Positions 29,900 through 37,180 of a stretch of DNA of 64,000 bases are shown here, in pieces (position 1 is the first letter of the stretch; every line of letters begins with the position of its first letter). Both the position numbers and the translations under genes were made by a program. Source of the stretch: Myxococcales bacterium. GTDB taxonomy: Bacteria; Myxococcota; Myxococcia; Myxococcales; 40CM-4-68-19. The stretch is taken from positions 176 to 64,175 of the forward strand of contig DASXHM010000276.1 of assembly GCA_036488495.1 (NCBI GenBank). Direction: 5' to 3'. The notes beneath the pieces were generated by a model that saw nothing but the letters and a program-made list of their open reading frames with translations, did not search any database and was not told the DNA's origin.

Positions 29900-30301
29900 T
29901 CACTTCGGGATCGCGCCCTGTCGCAAGAAATCGCGGGCGTCGATCGTTTCGAGCGCCCTCCGCGATTTGAAGACGCGCTGCTCGCTCGCCGCCGGCGAAA
30001 CGGCTTCCGAGTCCGCAGGCACGCCCGGCTCCGAGAGAACCGTCTCGACGAGCTCAGGACCGTCCGGAACGGGGTGCGCCGCAGGTCCGCGCGGAGCCTC
30101 CTGCACCGCCTCGCCCGGATTCGGCGGGATTTGTTCATCCACCGCCTGCCCGATTGGTCCGGCCAAGGGCGCCATGACCGGAGCCAACGCGGGATCCACA
30201 CCGAGCAGCAAGAAAGCGATCACCGCGACGCTGATGGTAGCCGTGGCGACGATCCTGCGGTTCCGCAACTTCTCCGGATCGAGCTTCGTCAACGCGTACA
30301 T
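29900..30301 (-). CDS. Hypothetical single-pass membrane protein with Pro-rich exposed region (133 aa)
   Basis: One TM helix (IVATATISVAVIAFLLLGV). It starts 54 nt downstream of the peroxidase stop on the same strand. Confidence 0.45.
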   Translation of the reverse strand: MYALTKLDPEKLRNRRIVATATISVAVIAFLLLGVDPALAPVMAPLAGPIGQAVDEQIPPNPGEAVQEAPRGPAAHPVPDGPELVETVLSEPGVPADSEAVSPAASEQRVFKSRRALETIDARDFLRQGAIPK

Positions 30302-30355: not shown

Positions 30356-33300
30356 TCACTGCACCGTGACCGTCACCGGCGCCGAGTCGGTGACGTTCCC
30401 CGCTGCGTCGCGAACGCGGGCGAGGAGCGTGTGGGCGCCGATCCCGCCGGTCGTGCTCGTGTTCCAGCGGACGCTGTACGGCACGCTCTTGTCCTCGGCG
30501 CCGAGCGGAGCGCCGTCGAGGAGGAATTGCACGCCGACCACCCCGACGTTGTCGGCGGCATTCGCCGAGACGGTGATGATCTTCGTGACGATGTCGCCAG
30601 TGACCGGCGCCGCGATCGAAACCGTGGGCGGAATCGGGTCGTTCACCACCTGCACCGGGACACCCGCGGCCGTGACCGTATTCCCCGCCGCGTCGCGCCC
30701 TCGCGCGGACAAAACATGCGTACCGTCGAGGACCGTCGTCGTGTTCCACGACACGCTGTACGGGTCAGTCGTGTCTTCGGCTTTGAGCGCGCTGCCGTTG
30801 AGCAGGAATTGCACGCCGGCGAGCAGGTTCGGCGAGGATGCGGCGACGCTGACGGTTCCGCTCAGGGAGACCCCCACTGCAGGCGACGTGACCGACAGCG
30901 CGAGGGGGCCGGGGGCGCCGCTCGAGACCACCAGGTTCACCGGAAACGCGAGGAATTCGAAGGTCCCCGCGGCCGGATCCGGACCGATCACCTTGCCTGG
31001 CGCCACCGTCGTGCTGGGACTGAAGTTGACGGCGCCGACCGTCAAACCGGCCGCGGTGATCCGATTGGCGGCCACCGTCTGCGTCACGCCGGCCAGGTTG
31101 CTGGGAATGGCCGCGACCTTGGCTCCGGGCGCCGCGATGGACCCGTCCGCGAACTGCAGCACCTCGATGTTCAAGAGGGTGTCGGTGCCGTCGTTGAGGA
31201 GTGCTTTCTTGGGCGGCCTCGCGTGGACCACCGTGACCGATCCATTCGGGTTCAAGGTGATGTCGTACTGAGCGCGATTGTTCGAGAACACCGCGGTGTC
31301 CACGGCGGGCGGCCCCAGGCGAATGGTCCGTTGGATGCGGATGTTTCCCGGGTTGAGGCGCTGCGGGTCGGCAAATACGTCGTCGGTGAGCCCGCGCGGG
31401 TCCCAGACCGCCTTGACGGTTCCGTCGTTGAGGGTGGCGATCAGTTGGACGTCCAACCAGCGATCGCCGTCGATCAGGTCGTTGCCGGCCTTGCCTTCGA
31501 TGACGTCGCGCCCGCCGCCGCCGAGCAGGATGTTGCCGGCCTTCCAGGGCAGCGTGATGTTGAACCCTGAAGGCCCGACCAGCTCGGTCAAGCCGGCGAT
31601 CTTCGCGGCGCCCGCGACGGTCAGCTCCATGCCGGGCAGGTTCTGGCGTTCGGGCGGAGCGGTGGGGTCGTCCACGCGGTCGTCGCCGCGGATGTGGTCA
31701 TCGAGGTCCCAGCCGGACGCGCCGTCCACGAGGCGGTACTTGTTGCGAAGGTCGTTGAAGTTCAAGAGGACGCCGGGGACGGCGAGGAGGTTCAGCTCGA
31801 TGTCGGCCGGGACCGGCCAACCGCGCTGGGTGATCCAATCGAAGCCGTAATCGCCGAAGAATTTGTTCGTCCCTTCGGACTGCAGGAAAATGTCGTCGCC
31901 GCCCTCGCCGAAGTGGTTGTCCTGGCCGGGGCCGCCGCCGAGGACGTCGTCGCCGCCTTCCTTGTCGAGCCCGGCGAGCAGGTCGAAGACGTTGCCGTTG
32001 TCGCCGAAGATGCCGCCGTCGTGGCCATCGCCGTCGTAGATCCAGTCGTCGCCCGTGCCGCCGAAAATGCCCTCGCTGCGCATGGCGCCGTCGATGATGA
32101 CGTCGTTGCCGGGACCGCCGAAGTACTCGACGCCGTCGTCACCGCCGACCATGAAGTCGTTGCCCTCGCCGCCGATGAGGATGTCTCCGCCGAAGCCCGG
32201 TCCGCTGGAGAGAGCGTCGTTGCCGGGGCCGCCCTTGAGGATGTCGTCGCCGTTGCCTCCGAAGAGGATGTCGTCGCCCTCGCCGCCGATGAGGATGTCG
32301 TTGCCTTCGGCGCCGTCCATCCGATCGTTGCCCTCGTTGCCCCACATGGTGTCGTCGCCGACGTCGCCACGGAAACGATCGCCGCCAGGGCCGCCGTTGA
32401 AGAGGACGTTCTTGCCGGAGTGCAGCGGATCGAAGAACTGCAGCGTGCCGTCGGAGAGCGCGAGCAGCGAGATGCCGGTTGCCGGATCGAGCACGCCGGG
32501 CGTGCTGGTCGAATCGAACACGTAATCGGCCGTCTCGAAGATGTTGCCCATGGTCGCTCCGACCGTGGTGTTGCGCCGGGCCAGCTCTGCGAGCGAGTTC
32601 CCTTCCAGCGAGAAGCGCAGGTTCAGGCCGTCGGTGCGCTGCAGGTAATAGAAGCGATCGCCGTTCTGCAGGTCTTCCAGTTGGTGCTCGAAGACGAAGT
32701 TGAAGGTGGTGCCGAGCAAGCCGCCGAACACGGACGGCTTCTCGGCCATGCCGCCGACCCAGAAGTCGACGGTGTCGAGGCCGCTCGTGGCCGACGGCGC
32801 CGACAGGTTCGCGTCATTCGCGGCAATCAACGCCGCCGCGGCGGCGCGCTTGCCCACGACGGTGGTCGCCGAGGTCACGTTCGGATGCGTCGAGTACGCC
32901 GCGACGAAATTGACGAACGATTCCGGATGCCGGAGGCCGAGCTTGAATTCCGACCAATTGGCGTACGGCCGCAGACCCGAATCCTGCGTCTTGGCGAAGA
33001 ACTGCTGCCTCGCCACGTTCAGGGGGGGAATTCCTTCGCTGCGGCCGCGCGCGATGTTGATGGCGGGAAGATCGAGCGGCAGGCCGACGAGCGAGTTTCG
33101 GACCGAGGAGGTGACGAACTCGTCGAGCTCGTTTCCCACCTGTCCGACGGAACCGCGGATCATCGAGCCGGCAGCGGCTGCGGCGGTGAGCGGCGTCGCG
33201 GTCCCGCCTTCGTTGTACGCGGCAGGATTGAGGAACGCATTGAGGAGGCGCAGGTCGTTGGGCGAGCCGTCGGTGTTGATCCGTGCCAGCATCTCCGGAA

Positions 33301-35044
33301 GCATGGAATGACCGAGCCGATAGACGGTGTGCGCGAACTCGGCCGAAATCGCCGCGTCGATGGAGGTGATGCCTCCCAGGAATGGGTTGATGAGCGGTTG
33401 CACCTTGCGCGCGAACTCTTCGAAGACCAGGTGCTGGTACTCCATCTCGGTCACGAACCGCGCCGCCTGGAAGAGTCGCTCGCCGTAGGCCCAGCCGGAG
33501 CCGGAGTCGACCGCGTTCCATTTCGCGATTTCGGCGGGCGTCAAGAGCTGGTTCACGAGCTTGTCGATCTGGTGGACCAGCCGGTTGTGCTCGGCGTGGA
33601 AGAGATTGTGCACCGTCGTCAACGCGATGTTCTCGTTGCCGCGGCCGTCACCGGTGACGAAGTGCGCATCGAGCACGTCGCCGTCATACGTGCCGGCGGG
33701 AGTTTTGCAGGTGGTGCTGCGGAAGTCGCAATAGACGCCGTCGCGGATTCCGGTCAGGCCCGGGTTCGGGATCGCATTGTGCGCAATGTCGTTGAGAAAC
33801 GCATGGCCGGTCCGGAACGCGTCGGCGGGAATGATGACGCCGGTGCCACCGTTCGCGGCAGGATTCCCTTCCACCAGCACGTTGCCCGGACGGATGAGCT
33901 GCGGGAAGCCGCGCGGGCCCGGCTTGAAATGGCCGTAGGGGTCGGTGAGGATCAGCGGGACGTCGAAGACGTCCTGGTCGGTGAGCCGGATGCCGAGCTT
34001 CGCCTGGGCCTGCGCCTTGACCTCCGCCCAGTTGCCGATGTTGCAGATGTCGTCGCCCGCAATCCCGGTGCCGCGCGGCGAGCAGTGCCCACCGTCCAAG
34101 ACCTTGCCGTCGGGAACCGGCCTGCCGGTCGCGAGGCTGTACTGGCGCAGGAAGACCTGGTGCGAGGGGTGCGAGGTATAGGTCTGGTTCTGATCCACCC
34201 AGGGCGTGGTCGTGTTCATGGTGTCCTGGATGTCGTCCGCGGTCCCGAGAATACCGTCCGGGCCGGGCTGGTTCTGCCCGCGCGCCATCACCATGAAGTT
34301 CGTCGGGCTGCCGGGGACGAACAGCGGGTCATCCGGTTGCAAGGGCATGACCACCGTTCCGCTCCCACCCTTGGTCACGAGGTCGAGACCGTGGTCGAAG
34401 AACTGGCCGAAGAAGACGAACATCAAATTGAAGGGCGCGGAGAGGCCGAAGTCGGGCGTGATGTTGGGGATGAAGAGCGCGCCGGAGAAAGGATCGGGCG
34501 GCGACGGATCCGCGCAGACGAAATTGCCCGCGCCGCACGGATGAGCGGCGACTGCCACGGCTGCGGGGTTGGTCGCGGACTGGTCGACGATCAGGTTGCT
34601 GATGGTGCGCGGGCGCGAGTCGATCACATTGGTGTCGGTCTTGGTCGCGTAGGAAGTGCCTGCTTCTGCCGGACGGAACGACGGCGACGTCAGCCGGGGA
34701 AAGAGGCGATCGGCCGCGCCGAACAGGTGCTGATCGGGAATCTGCACCAGGTTGTTGAACGTCCCGTCGACGGTGCGCAGGCCGACTGGAAACTGCGGGT
34801 CGGGGACGCCATTCAGGTTGACCTGGTTCGGGCCCGGTCCGAGCAGCGCGCCGCCCGCCGCGTGGAACTGCGCGACTTCGATTTGGTGGAAGATGAACCG
34901 CAGATCGCCGGCGTCGATGGAAAAGCCATTTCCGACCGGCGCGGTCTGCGCGTGGGCCGAGCTCGCCGGGTAGAAGACGAAGAGCAGCACCCGGCCGACC
35001 ACGAGCGCACTGCGCCACCGGCCATTCATTCGCATTCGATTCAT
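30356..35044 (-). CDS. Secreted multidomain haem peroxidase (1562 aa): peroxidase-cyclooxygenase fold, RTX Ca-binding repeats, PASTA-like module and two Ig-like domains
   Basis: ATG at 35044 with GGGGG upstream and signal peptide MNRMRMNGRWRSALVVGRVLLFVFYPASSAHA. Catalytic motifs are FGQFFDHGLD (distal Gln/Asp/His), GDGRGNE (Arg, Glu), LFHAEHNRL and YRLGHS (proximal His). GGxGxD nonapeptides span aa 883-1055. The C-terminal 186 aa form two similar repeats (GVQFLL(N/D)G...DPYSVSWNT / VPYSVRWNT...AAGN). Confidence 0.85.
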   Translation of the reverse strand: MNRMRMNGRWRSALVVGRVLLFVFYPASSAHAQTAPVGNGFSIDAGDLRFIFHQIEVAQFHAAGGALLGPGPNQVNLNGVPDPQFPVGLRTVDGTFNNLVQIPDQHLFGAADRLFPRLTSPSFRPAEAGTSYATKTDTNVIDSRPRTISNLIVDQSATNPAAVAVAAHPCGAGNFVCADPSPPDPFSGALFIPNITPDFGLSAPFNLMFVFFGQFFDHGLDLVTKGGSGTVVMPLQPDDPLFVPGSPTNFMVMARGQNQPGPDGILGTADDIQDTMNTTTPWVDQNQTYTSHPSHQVFLRQYSLATGRPVPDGKVLDGGHCSPRGTGIAGDDICNIGNWAEVKAQAQAKLGIRLTDQDVFDVPLILTDPYGHFKPGPRGFPQLIRPGNVLVEGNPAANGGTGVIIPADAFRTGHAFLNDIAHNAIPNPGLTGIRDGVYCDFRSTTCKTPAGTYDGDVLDAHFVTGDGRGNENIALTTVHNLFHAEHNRLVHQIDKLVNQLLTPAEIAKWNAVDSGSGWAYGERLFQAARFVTEMEYQHLVFEEFARKVQPLINPFLGGITSIDAAISAEFAHTVYRLGHSMLPEMLARINTDGSPNDLRLLNAFLNPAAYNEGGTATPLTAAAAAGSMIRGSVGQVGNELDEFVTSSVRNSLVGLPLDLPAINIARGRSEGIPPLNVARQQFFAKTQDSGLRPYANWSEFKLGLRHPESFVNFVAAYSTHPNVTSATTVVGKRAAAAALIAANDANLSAPSATSGLDTVDFWVGGMAEKPSVFGGLLGTTFNFVFEHQLEDLQNGDRFYYLQRTDGLNLRFSLEGNSLAELARRNTTVGATMGNIFETADYVFDSTSTPGVLDPATGISLLALSDGTLQFFDPLHSGKNVLFNGGPGGDRFRGDVGDDTMWGNEGNDRMDGAEGNDILIGGEGDDILFGGNGDDILKGGPGNDALSSGPGFGGDILIGGEGNDFMVGGDDGVEYFGGPGNDVIIDGAMRSEGIFGGTGDDWIYDGDGHDGGIFGDNGNVFDLLAGLDKEGGDDVLGGGPGQDNHFGEGGDDIFLQSEGTNKFFGDYGFDWITQRGWPVPADIELNLLAVPGVLLNFNDLRNKYRLVDGASGWDLDDHIRGDDRVDDPTAPPERQNLPGMELTVAGAAKIAGLTELVGPSGFNITLPWKAGNILLGGGGRDVIEGKAGNDLIDGDRWLDVQLIATLNDGTVKAVWDPRGLTDDVFADPQRLNPGNIRIQRTIRLGPPAVDTAVFSNNRAQYDITLNPNGSVTVVHARPPKKALLNDGTDTLLNIEVLQFADGSIAAPGAKVAAIPSNLAGVTQTVAANRITAAGLTVGAVNFSPSTTVAPGKVIGPDPAAGTFEFLAFPVNLVVSSGAPGPLALSVTSPAVGVSLSGTVSVAASSPNLLAGVQFLLNGSALKAEDTTDPYSVSWNTTTVLDGTHVLSARGRDAAGNTVTAAGVPVQVVNDPIPPTVSIAAPVTGDIVTKIITVSANAADNVGVVGVQFLLDGAPLGAEDKSVPYSVRWNTSTTGGIGAHTLLARVRDAAGNVTDSAPVTVTVQ

Positions 35045-35150
35045 TTGAAACCCCCATTGCGTCGAGACCCCGCTTCCCGTTTGGAGCAAGGGTCTCCATC
35101 GGCGACGCGCTCAGGTTGGGAGCGCCGCCCGTCACCACGGAGGCTGGTTC

Positions 35151-35166
35151 TGCATCGCCGATGCCA
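35151..35166 (-). promoter_or_regulatory. Candidate sigma-54 (-24/-12) promoter for the peroxidase gene
   Basis: The minus strand reads TGGCAT-CGGCG-ATGCA against the consensus TGGCAC-N5-TTGCA, with exact GG-N10-GC spacing. It lies about 105 nt upstream of the ATG at 35044 and directly downstream of a sigma-54 activator gene. Confidence 0.55.
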
Positions 35167-35333
35167 AGGCGGACGGCGTTGATATTGATAGGCTTTTGTT
35201 TCGTGCAGAGTTCGTTAGATGAACGCATTGCGCGGCGAGAAGCCCGGACTTCGCTCTTCAAGCCAGCGCATTTACAACGATAATCCGCTGGTCCGAAAAA
35301 ACGTCCTAGGAAGTTCATCTTATGCTGTTCTCG

Positions 35334-37112
35334 TTAGTGCGTGCCCGTGGCTGCGGGCCGGGCCGGGCCAGGCTCCGTCTTCTCGTGCGCGAGGCCATAG
35401 CGCCGGATCTTGCTGTACAGAGTGCCTTTGACGATGCCGAGAATCTGCGCGGCGGCGGCGACGTTGCCTTGCGCCTTCTCCAGCGCGCGGGCACAGGCGC
35501 GGCGCTCGGCGCTCTCCAAGGAGAACCCGCCCGACGGCGTGAGCAAGCGCAGGGCGCGCTCGATCGGATCGGGGATGGTGTCGAGCTCCGACTTCCCTGG
35601 CGGCAAGAGCGCGATGTTCCCTTCGAGCGTGTTGACGAGCTCGCGGACGTTCCCGGGCCAAGGGTAGCGCTCGAAAGCGGCCAGGACCTCCGGCGCAATC
35701 CGAATGGTCCGCCACGACCTCTTGCGCTCCGCCGCGAGCTGCGCCTCGACCAACAGACGGATATCGCCGGCCCGCTCGCGCAGAGGTGGCAACTGGATGT
35801 CCACCACCCGCAGCCGGTGGAGCAGATCGAGCCGGAACCGCCCGGCGGCCACTTCGATCTCGAGATCGCGGTTGGTGCTGGCGATGACGCGAGCGTTGAA
35901 CGCCTTGGCGGCGGACCCGCCGAGCCGGTGCACCACCTTCTCCTGCAGCACGCGCAAGAGCTTCGTCTGCATGTCGAGCGGCAACTCGCCGATCTCGTCC
36001 AAGAGGAGCGTGCCGTTCCGCGCCAGCTCGAACTTTCCGGCGCGGCCCTGCGCCGATGCGCCGGTGAACGCGCCCTCCTCGTAGCCGAAGAGCTCGCTCT
36101 CGAGAAGCTCCCCGGGAATGGCGGAGACGTTCACGCCGACGAATGGTTCGGCGGCGCGCCCAGACGCATTGTGGATGGCCTGCGCGAGGATCTCCTTCCC
36201 GGTGCCGGTCTCGCCGGTGATCAGGACGGGAAGGTTCAGGTCGGCGACGCGGTGCGCGGTCTCGCGAACCGCACGGATCAGCGGCGACTCGCCGATCAGA
36301 TCGTGGATGTGGTAGCGGGCGCGCGGATGCCCTGCAGCGCGCCCGTGGCGGGACGTGGCGGGCGTCAGCAGGACCGCCGGAGGCGTCTCCGTCGCGTCCT
36401 TCGCGCGGTGCGCGATCACGGCTCCCGCGGCAGGGCTGAGCGCGCGAATGATTCCCTCGAGCGCGAGCACCGCATCCGCGACTGCGCCGGCGAGCGCCGC
36501 TTCGGCAGCCTGCGTCTCGCCGTTCAGCTCCGCCCGCGCAAATGCGACCGCGGACATGAACGCGAACACCTCGAGCTCGCCCAGCTCACGGCGGGTAAAG
36601 GTCCGGCCCGCAGCCTGCTCCAGGACGATGAAGAGACGGAGCGGTGCCCGGCGAGCAATCGAAACGACCGCAACCGCACCGTCGCCGAAGGGCCCGAGCC
36701 GCGCTGCCGGATCGTCCTCGCCGCAGGAAGGCGCGCGAGGCTGGACGAGCGTACGTAGATACGCTTCCACGACGGGATGGACCTGACCTTCGGCGCAAGG
36801 ATGCGCGCTCTCGCCGGAGGTGCTTTCGCGGTCCTGCCGGGCGAGCACGAATGCTCCACGGTCGGAAGACGCGTCTACCAATCGGGCGGTGTCGGCGCTG
36901 CAAATGCCGAGGCTGAGGCGGACGACGGCAGCCGAGACGGATTCTTTGTCGGTCGCGTCGGCCAATTCCCGGCACGCAATGGCGAGCCCCTCGCTGCGGC
37001 GTGCTTCCGCGGCCTCGGACGCGTCGAACGATTGCGGGAACCTCCCGCCCTGCGACGTTCCCTGCATGGCCCGCCTCCGGCCTCCGGACAAGCAATGCAA
37101 ATCATTGAACAA
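35334..37112 (-). CDS. Sigma-54-dependent transcriptional activator (GAF-like sensor, AAA+ domain, Fis-type HTH); TTG at 37112 or ATG at 37067
   Basis: Walker A GETGTGKE, the sigma-54 contact loop ESELFGYEEGAFTGA, Walker B LLLDEIGELP, RFRLDLLHRL, and a C-terminal HTH AAAQILGIVKGTLYSKIRRYGL. There is no receiver domain. Confidence 0.85.
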   Translation of the reverse strand: MFNDLHCLSGGRRRAMQGTSQGGRFPQSFDASEAAEARRSEGLAIACRELADATDKESVSAAVVRLSLGICSADTARLVDASSDRGAFVLARQDRESTSGESAHPCAEGQVHPVVEAYLRTLVQPRAPSCGEDDPAARLGPFGDGAVAVVSIARRAPLRLFIVLEQAAGRTFTRRELGELEVFAFMSAVAFARAELNGETQAAEAALAGAVADAVLALEGIIRALSPAAGAVIAHRAKDATETPPAVLLTPATSRHGRAAGHPRARYHIHDLIGESPLIRAVRETAHRVADLNLPVLITGETGTGKEILAQAIHNASGRAAEPFVGVNVSAIPGELLESELFGYEEGAFTGASAQGRAGKFELARNGTLLLDEIGELPLDMQTKLLRVLQEKVVHRLGGSAAKAFNARVIASTNRDLEIEVAAGRFRLDLLHRLRVVDIQLPPLRERAGDIRLLVEAQLAAERKRSWRTIRIAPEVLAAFERYPWPGNVRELVNTLEGNIALLPPGKSELDTIPDPIERALRLLTPSGGFSLESAERRACARALEKAQGNVAAAAQILGIVKGTLYSKIRRYGLAHEKTEPGPARPAATGTH

Positions 37113-37151
37113 ATATGAGGCGGATCACAAGTGGGCAGCGAAAAATATAAT

Positions 37152-37180
37152 TTTCTACAATGATAGCAATCTTACGGCAA
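37152..37180 (-). promoter_or_regulatory. Candidate sigma-70-type promoter within an AT-rich 80-nt gap upstream of the activator gene
   Basis: The minus strand reads TTGCCG-N17-TAGAAA. The surrounding 37113..37192 is conspicuously AT-rich for this sequence. Confidence 0.35.

Follow-up and report, generated by a model that had tools for sequence, protein, structure and literature searches.

Which factor switches on the gene for a secreted animal-type haem peroxidase in a bacterium? The question is raised by a 64,000-nucleotide stretch of DNA from a Myxococcales bacterium (NCBI GenBank assembly GCA_036488495.1, contig DASXHM010000276.1, positions 176 to 64,175 of the forward strand), referred to here as the window. 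The peroxidase gene and the gene upstream of it, which encodes an enhancer-binding protein, are both on the minus strand and are separated by 289 nt (35045..35333; positions are those of the window unless a contig or locus is named). Based on sequence comparisons, we consider it probable (roughly 0.8) that this gap holds a working sigma-54 promoter which drives the peroxidase gene and is fired by the adjacent activator from a dyad centred at -77.

The predicted promoter and the adjacent activator gene

A preliminary description of the locus had placed a -24/-12 motif with GG-N10-GC spacing on the minus strand near the peroxidase ATG, and this was borne out. The core, TGGCAT-CGGCG-ATGCA at 35166..35151, has exactly this spacing, and its -12 C (35152) lies 108 nt from the ATG (35044). 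It differs from the consensus at -21 (T) and -15 (A). The pattern TGGCAY-N5-RTGCA occurs once in the window, compared with 0.10 occurrences expected per 64 kb. The window's genome, a metagenome-assembled sequence of 4.7 Mb (68% G+C, 405 contigs), has six copies, all six in non-coding DNA, which by our own call makes up 18% of the genome.

The genome was also scanned with a position weight matrix (PWM) that is our own approximation of a published promoter compilation and whose scores are rough. The predicted site in the gap scores 12.6 bits, in favour of a promoter, yet ranks only midway genome-wide. Scores of at least 12 bits were found at 162 of approximately 9.4 million positions; 24 of these 162 sites are non-coding and lie 15-300 nt ahead of a gene start in the same orientation, and the window site falls within the score range of the 24. 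By PWM score alone the site is thus plausible and not outstanding. A control comparing sense with antisense PWM matches was discarded, as it was confounded by divergent intergenic regions.

A scan of the gap found no sigma-70-like promoter on the minus strand and detected no terminator after the activator gene. No Rfam model matched 34900..35450 at E <= 1, hence no known riboswitch or leader RNA is present there. Transcription from sigma-54 promoters usually starts 12 nt from the -12 C, and the predicted start and leader were placed on this basis (Table 1).

The genome also encodes sigma-54. The rpoN gene is divided by the assembly between two contig ends, one (C313:16114-17568) with the N-terminal and core-binding parts (Sigma54_CBD) and the other (C369:13382-13610) with Sigma54_DBD and the RpoN box ARRTVAKYR; as far as it is visible, the gene does not appear to be a pseudogene. 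Approximately 28 sigma-54 activators are encoded in the genome.

The protein encoded upstream of the peroxidase had been described as an enhancer-binding protein with a GAFTGA loop and without a receiver domain, in agreement with Pfam and motif searches. The Walker A (GETGTGKE), GAFTGA, Walker B (LLLDE) and sensor II (GNVREL) motifs are all present. Pfam gave no Response_reg match in the protein, and NCBIfam matches begin only at residue ~265 or later. By these sequence features it is a bacterial enhancer-binding protein (an AAA+ sigma-54 activator) and not a two-component response regulator of the NtrC type. In the absence of a receiver domain, the activator presumably responds to its signal directly. 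The open reading frame (ORF) spans 37112..35334 and opens at TTG 37112; the most likely start is ATG 37067, because an ortholog (P0004) and a database cluster (P0003, 577 residues) both start at the corresponding MQGTSQGG.

No sigma-70-like match that could serve as the activator gene's own promoter was found in the gap between it and the GST gene. Two overlapping sigma-70-like matches (ATCACA-16-TATAAT and TGGGCA-18-TACAAT) are present at 37124-37161 on the plus strand of this AT-rich gap, directed away from the activator.

Conservation of promoter and dyad across the activator family

The ortholog P0004, 76% identical to the window's activator, is encoded on a 4.8-kb JGI contig (L027) with the same layout as the window: activator, a 301-nt gap and a peroxidase gene (91% identical). 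The L027 gap retains TTGGCAT and TGCA, and the two changes in the motif are both in the spacer (TTGGCATCcGCGgTGCA). Paralogs of the activator, with 30-40% identity in the N-terminal domain, are found in the same genome (on contig C154) and in related genomes. In nine loci (window, L027, C154, L015 and L108-L112) TGGCAY-N5-RTGCA follows the activator gene, in the same orientation, approximately 110-300 nt past its stop codon; this position was read in five loci and estimated from ORF lengths for L015, L111 and L112. TGGCA and TGCA are invariant across the nine. The pattern is absent from the 100-odd other loci compared, which include approximately 750 kb around 80 peroxidase orthologs. The co-occurrence in nine loci supports the earlier proposal of a cis-encoded sigma-54 activator together with a -24/-12 promoter before the peroxidase gene.

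All nine activator-linked loci also contain a dyad with the consensus GAGTTCA-N5-TGAACTC, at a constant distance from the promoter; measured in four loci, its centre is at -76 or -77. Dyads with two mismatches or fewer number only three in the genome, all of them non-coding. The window and L027 share the left arm GCGTTCA, a variant that differs from the arm of the C154 paralog. The window's activator and the C154 paralog have almost the same recognition helix (VKGTLYSKIRRYG in the former), which fits a shared site. Two palindromes considered before the nine loci were aligned, GTTCAT-N3-ATGAAC and, in L108-L110, AGTTC-CT-GAACT, were superseded by the 7-N5-7 dyad.

The preliminary description had taken two AATGCG(C/T)T segments in an AT-rich stretch for possible activator-binding sites. 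The segments exist (~35272 and ~35228) and the stretch is AT-rich (50% G+C for 35170..35333, compared with 67% for the window), but they were rejected as the activator site, L027 having AATACG and GACGCG. The second segment shares positions with the dyad's left arm.

Between the dyad and the -24 element is an AT-rich block, CCTATCAATATCAACGCCGTCC, in which 22 of 22 bases are the same in L027; the adjoining DNA is variable. Read from the sequence, the block contains two WATCAA cores and lacks the TTR part of the integration host factor (IHF) consensus WATCAANNNNTTR. Genes of the HU/IHF family are present in the genome, and a role of the block in DNA bending is possible. Further upstream, at the weak distal half-site listed in Table 1, the block CATAAGATGAAC is kept in L027.

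In the nine-locus alignment almost nothing is conserved except TGGCA/TGCA, the AT-rich stretch and the dyad. A footprint limited to the promoter elements and the dyad, across paralogs as divergent as these, is in our view strong evidence for function. The loci define a rare activator subfamily with its own likely DNA site, GAGTTCA-N5-TGAACTC, and an RTGCA -12 box.

The targets differ within the subfamily. At C154:33661-36553 (L012) the dyad GAGTTCAAATTCTAAACTC and the promoter TGGCACTCGCGGTGCA come after the paralogous activator gene, and then a gene for a signal-peptide protein that is cut by the contig end. In at least four members (C154, L108, L109 and L110) the activator precedes a homologous secreted protein, 841 residues long in L108; targets of this type are unlike the peroxidase in sequence and are not recognised by any Pfam model. 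An SRPBCC protein is encoded after the secreted target in L108 and L109.

Two further sites in the window's genome resemble these arrangements. A third family-type promoter, TGGCATTGCAGGTGCA, is found at C197:10908-10923 (minus strand), with a dyad-like element, GAGTTCAATTTTCAGACTG, approximately 8 nt closer than usual. It precedes a gene for a small multi-pass membrane protein, has no adjacent activator gene and may be an extra target of one of the two paralogous activators. At C158:3647-3662 (minus strand) another activator gene, whose product ends in MKRYGLNAADYR, leaves only 3 nt between its end and TGGCACGTGCGGTGCA. Such placing of a promoter immediately behind an activator gene seems to be recurrent in this genome.

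The peroxidase belongs to the animal haem peroxidases (peroxidase-cyclooxygenase superfamily) by its match to PF03098, and contains what we take to be the distal His (FFDHGLD), the Arg (GDGRGNEN) and the proximal His region (HNLFHAEHNR). The small ORF that follows it (Table 1) is probably in the same transcription unit. The nearest orthologs of the peroxidase (80-83% identity) are in two related genomes, G024 (VBKL01000046.1) and G010 (CAWBVQ010000010.1). They have no activator gene, dyad or -24/-12 motif upstream; a divergently transcribed Sigma70_r2 gene of the extracytoplasmic function (ECF) type lies across an intergenic region of 600-800 nt, and this adjacency suggests that the nearest orthologs are under ECF sigma control. 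The window's promoter region cannot be aligned with these loci, and its leader is similar to that of G010 from approximately +20 to the ATG (~75 nt).

The 80 ortholog loci span many phyla, and at all of them GAFTGA proteins are absent within 4 kb of the peroxidase; the pairing of activator and peroxidase was found only in the window's genome and on the one metagenome contig, L027. The activator, called dedicated in the preliminary description, can thus be so called within the window/L027 lineage; elsewhere the label fails, given the ECF-linked orthologs, the 80 loci and the 841-residue targets. In the simplest reading of these comparisons, the peroxidase gene acquired a copy of the activator cassette in an ancestor of the window organism and L027. 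A fuller scenario is doubtful: that a cassette of activator, -77 dyad, AT-rich bend and -24/-12 element was copied within one genus and replaced ECF sigma control with a junction at approximately +20, and that a second protein-binding palindrome overlaps the sigma-54 site.

The ECF-type sigma genes beside the nearest orthologs are at L024:7114-7812 (minus strand) and L025:8140-8850 (plus strand). Short ORFs with a ribosome-binding site begin in the long intergenic region at L024:8417 and L025:7665 (MTRSKACHG... and MTSSKACRG...), and sigma gene and short ORF may form a different control circuit for the same peroxidase. In a metagenome-assembled genome of Candidatus Rokuibacteriota (JANOHV010000020.1), a near-consensus sigma-54 motif, TTGGCATATCACTTGCAT, is found at L051:2576-2591 (plus strand), approximately 250 nt upstream of, and co-oriented with, a gene for a peroxidase ortholog (51% identity). 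A 44-residue ORF that has a strong ribosome-binding site comes after the motif; no activator gene lies within 2.8 kb. The estimated probability of such a match by chance is ~0.07 across 80 upstream regions, and the match is only suggestive.

Proposed mechanism and competing explanations

From the domains, the motifs, their co-conservation and the presence of rpoN we infer binding of the two proteins, the start site, dependence on sigma-54 and the activator, and any ligand, as follows. Sigma-54 holoenzyme would occupy 35167..35151 as a closed complex, and the activator would bind the -77 dyad, and perhaps also the weak half-site near -180, through its Fis-type helix-turn-helix. Assembly of the AAA+ ring would allow the GAFTGA loops to touch sigma-54 across the AT-rich block, which may assist through DNA bending. 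Opening of the promoter would be driven by ATP, with transcription from near 35140 into the peroxidase gene and probably also the small ORF. Control of the ATPase would lie with the divergent GAF-like domain and its signal, for which the preliminary description had proposed a small-molecule or redox ligand, with peroxidase expression tightly off until the ligand is sensed.

Several observations weigh against this proposal. The -12 element is ATGCA, compared with the usual TTGCW, and the approximate PWM gives the site its middling rank. Most characterised activator sites are further from their promoters than the dyad at -77, which is also the only strong dyad in the gap. As a similar dyad is found at the paralog, cross-activation is possible, and as no terminator follows the activator gene, read-through could add to peroxidase transcription. 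The nine loci fall into approximately four orthologous groups and are therefore not nine independent samples. Finally, L113, a more distant member of the family, has no such motif downstream.

If the promoter is real, it could still be fired by another activator, either the C154 paralog or one of the ~26 others, the adjacent gene being mainly a regulator of something else. The similarity of the paralog in recognition helix and dyad is consistent with this, as are the size of the activator complement in the genome and the C197 promoter, which has a dyad-like element and stands without an adjacent activator. We consider it improbable, since promoter and dyad are directly downstream of a family member in all nine loci, and since the left arm shared by the window and L027 dyads is unlike that of the paralog. 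The element could also have another nature. Its core is palindromic (GCATC-N3-GATGC), and it might be mainly an operator for a dimeric protein, with the peroxidase transcribed from another promoter or by read-through, for which the lack of a detected terminator would leave room. The 5-bp inverted arms are paired in 44 of 45 cells across the nine loci, and there are paired changes among the paralogs (T-A to C-G at -21/-15 and C-G to T-A at -20/-16). However, three of the five pairs consist of invariant bases of the sigma-54 consensus, the invariant TGG reaches beyond the palindrome and the covariation is weak, its observed score being reached in 54 of 500 shuffles. The element is, moreover, always linked to a sigma-54 activator gene, and the minus strand of the gap offers no sigma-70-like promoter in its place, which makes this explanation very improbable.

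Least probable of the three is the reading in which the motif lacks function or is a relic, and the adjacency of the genes is without regulatory meaning. The moderate PWM score would agree with it, as would the ~110 sites of similar score inside regions called coding and the absence of both activator and motif at the nearest peroxidase orthologs. Against it are the joint conservation of the promoter and the dyad at paralogous activator loci, the restriction of the six genomic copies of the pattern to non-coding DNA, and L027, which retains both boxes though the spacer varies. A sigma-54 promoter fired by the adjacent activator thus remains our preferred reading.

Table 1 Features of the activator-peroxidase locus in the window.
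Feature	Position	Strand	Details
Predicted sigma-54 promoter, TTGGCATCGGCGATGCA	35151..35167	-	GG 35165/35164 = -25/-24; GC 35153/35152 = -13/-12
Core palindrome GCATC-N3-GATGC, 5-bp arms	35152-35164	-	Aligned columns in eight other loci
Predicted transcription start, about 35140	35138..35142	-	Placed by the usual 12-nt distance after the -12 C
5' leader (predicted), ~95 nt	35045..35137	-	Partly common to ECF-type ortholog loci
Invariant AT-rich block, CCTATCAATATCAACGCCGTCC	35171..35192	-	Between dyad and -24; possible bending or IHF-like site
Candidate activator-binding dyad (upstream activating sequence, UAS), GCGTTCA-TCTAA-CGAACTC, GCGTTCATCTAACGAACTC	35208..35226	-	Centre ~-77, ~52 nt upstream of GG
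Weak candidate distal half-site, AACAGCATAAGATGAACTT	35311..35329	-	Centre ~-180; 5 mismatches to the dyad consensus; speculative
Enhancer-binding protein gene	35334..37067	-	577 residues; Sigma54_activat, AAA_lid_14, HTH_8 (Pfam)
C-terminal Fis-type helix-turn-helix DNA-binding domain	35397..35519	-	PF02954 HTH_8, E 5.9e-8
AAA+ sigma-54 interaction domain with GAFTGA loop	35793..36299	-	PF00158, E 4.9e-64, profile positions 1-168 of 168
PAS domain remnant	36384..36515	-	~40 residues fewer than paralogs; from alignment with paralogs
N-terminal sensor, divergent GAF-like fold, ~residues 16-181	36525..37022	-	Fold match to GAF structures; no Pfam match
Secreted haem peroxidase gene	30356..35044	-	1562 residues; An_peroxidase PF03098 E 5e-55, RTX repeats (HemolysinCabind), Big_7 (Ig-like)
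Small ORF	29900..30301	-	54 nt past the peroxidase stop; coding by a GC3-based gene caller

The sensor domain and comparison with known systems

The N-terminal sensor of the activator had been described as GAF-like, a description that fits the modelled fold and does not extend to family membership. No Pfam model matches residues 1-265 even at E <= 10, the Pfam GAF model does not match residues 16-280 at E <= 10, and a sequence search of the PDB with the N-terminal domain gave nothing at E <= 10. With phmmer, residues 115-217 weakly match (E 9e-6) a GAF repeat of a multi-GAF histidine kinase. Relatives of the domain are very few: an exhaustive HMMER search of 1.84 billion proteins gave six representatives, a multi-GAF kinase among them, a word-indexed search of 5.8 billion proteins gave one, and a scan of metagenome contigs gave 267 pattern matches, none of which was confirmed.

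An AlphaFold model of the sensor, based on an alignment of seven sequences and of moderate confidence (pLDDT 61), has four strands and the order H-H-E-E-H-E-E-H. The 30 best PDB matches of this moderate-confidence model (E <= 0.001) all contain GAF domains, and it superposes on the stand-alone GAF domains 3cit, 3ci6 and 6xhh with TM scores of 0.58-0.60, normalised to the latter. Describing the sensor as GAF-like would therefore be reasonable at the level of the modelled fold, not as a recognisable member of the GAF family.

Between the sensor and the AAA+ core, paralog P0006 and the C154 activator have PAS/PAS_4 matches at the position aligned with the PAS remnant of the window's activator, and the L027 activator has a Pro/Ala-rich repeat or insert in place of a PAS domain. 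The sensor module of the window/L027 lineage may be decaying or undergoing remodelling.

The literature searched contained no report that a bacterial animal-type haem peroxidase is controlled by sigma-54 or by an activator. The locus provides a testable and well-supported regulatory assignment for such an enzyme, and the site GAGTTCA-N5-TGAACTC with the promoter variant TGGCAY-N5-RTGCA can be used to find regulons in related soil genomes. Compared with the window, the ECF-sigma-linked orthologs may represent a natural instance of promoter-module replacement. The architecture is an ordinary, textbook one, the sensor domain is rare and the target gene is unusual; because the architecture is textbook, the value of the locus lies in annotation and as an experimental handle, not in a new principle.

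Like NorR, NifA and FhlA, the window's activator consists of an N-terminal sensor, an AAA+ domain with GAFTGA and a Fis-type helix-turn-helix. As with these proteins, it has no receiver domain and its gene adjoins its own sigma-54 promoter, here a predicted one, with a dyad-symmetric site upstream. PspF offers the comparison for an activator site so close in. NCBIfam gave only sub-threshold matches to NorR, NifA, PrdR and PrpR, through the shared AAA+ core, and all equivalog scores are far under the cut-offs, so the activator belongs to none of the named families. Unlike the NorR/NifA/FhlA class, it has a very rare sensor with no Pfam GAF match, a truncated PAS domain and a family-specific dyad with an RTGCA box, and its proposed target is a secreted haem peroxidase.

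The nearest functional parallel that we found is MnxR, a two-component response regulator. For the Mn(II) oxidase genes mnxG and mcoA of Pseudomonas putida GB-1, IHF and sigma-54 sites have been predicted and a dependence on MnxR is presumed, with two sensor kinases, MnxS1 and MnxS2, proposed for MnxR (PMC11930936). The animal-haem peroxidase of GB-1, MopA, had no activity in the wild type, and no sigma-54 dependence was reported for it (PMC11930936). In both systems, if our assignment holds, a sigma-54 activator presides over secreted or outer oxidative metalloenzymes; the window's activator differs from MnxR in having no receiver domain, and the sigma-54-controlled enzymes of GB-1 are multicopper oxidases.

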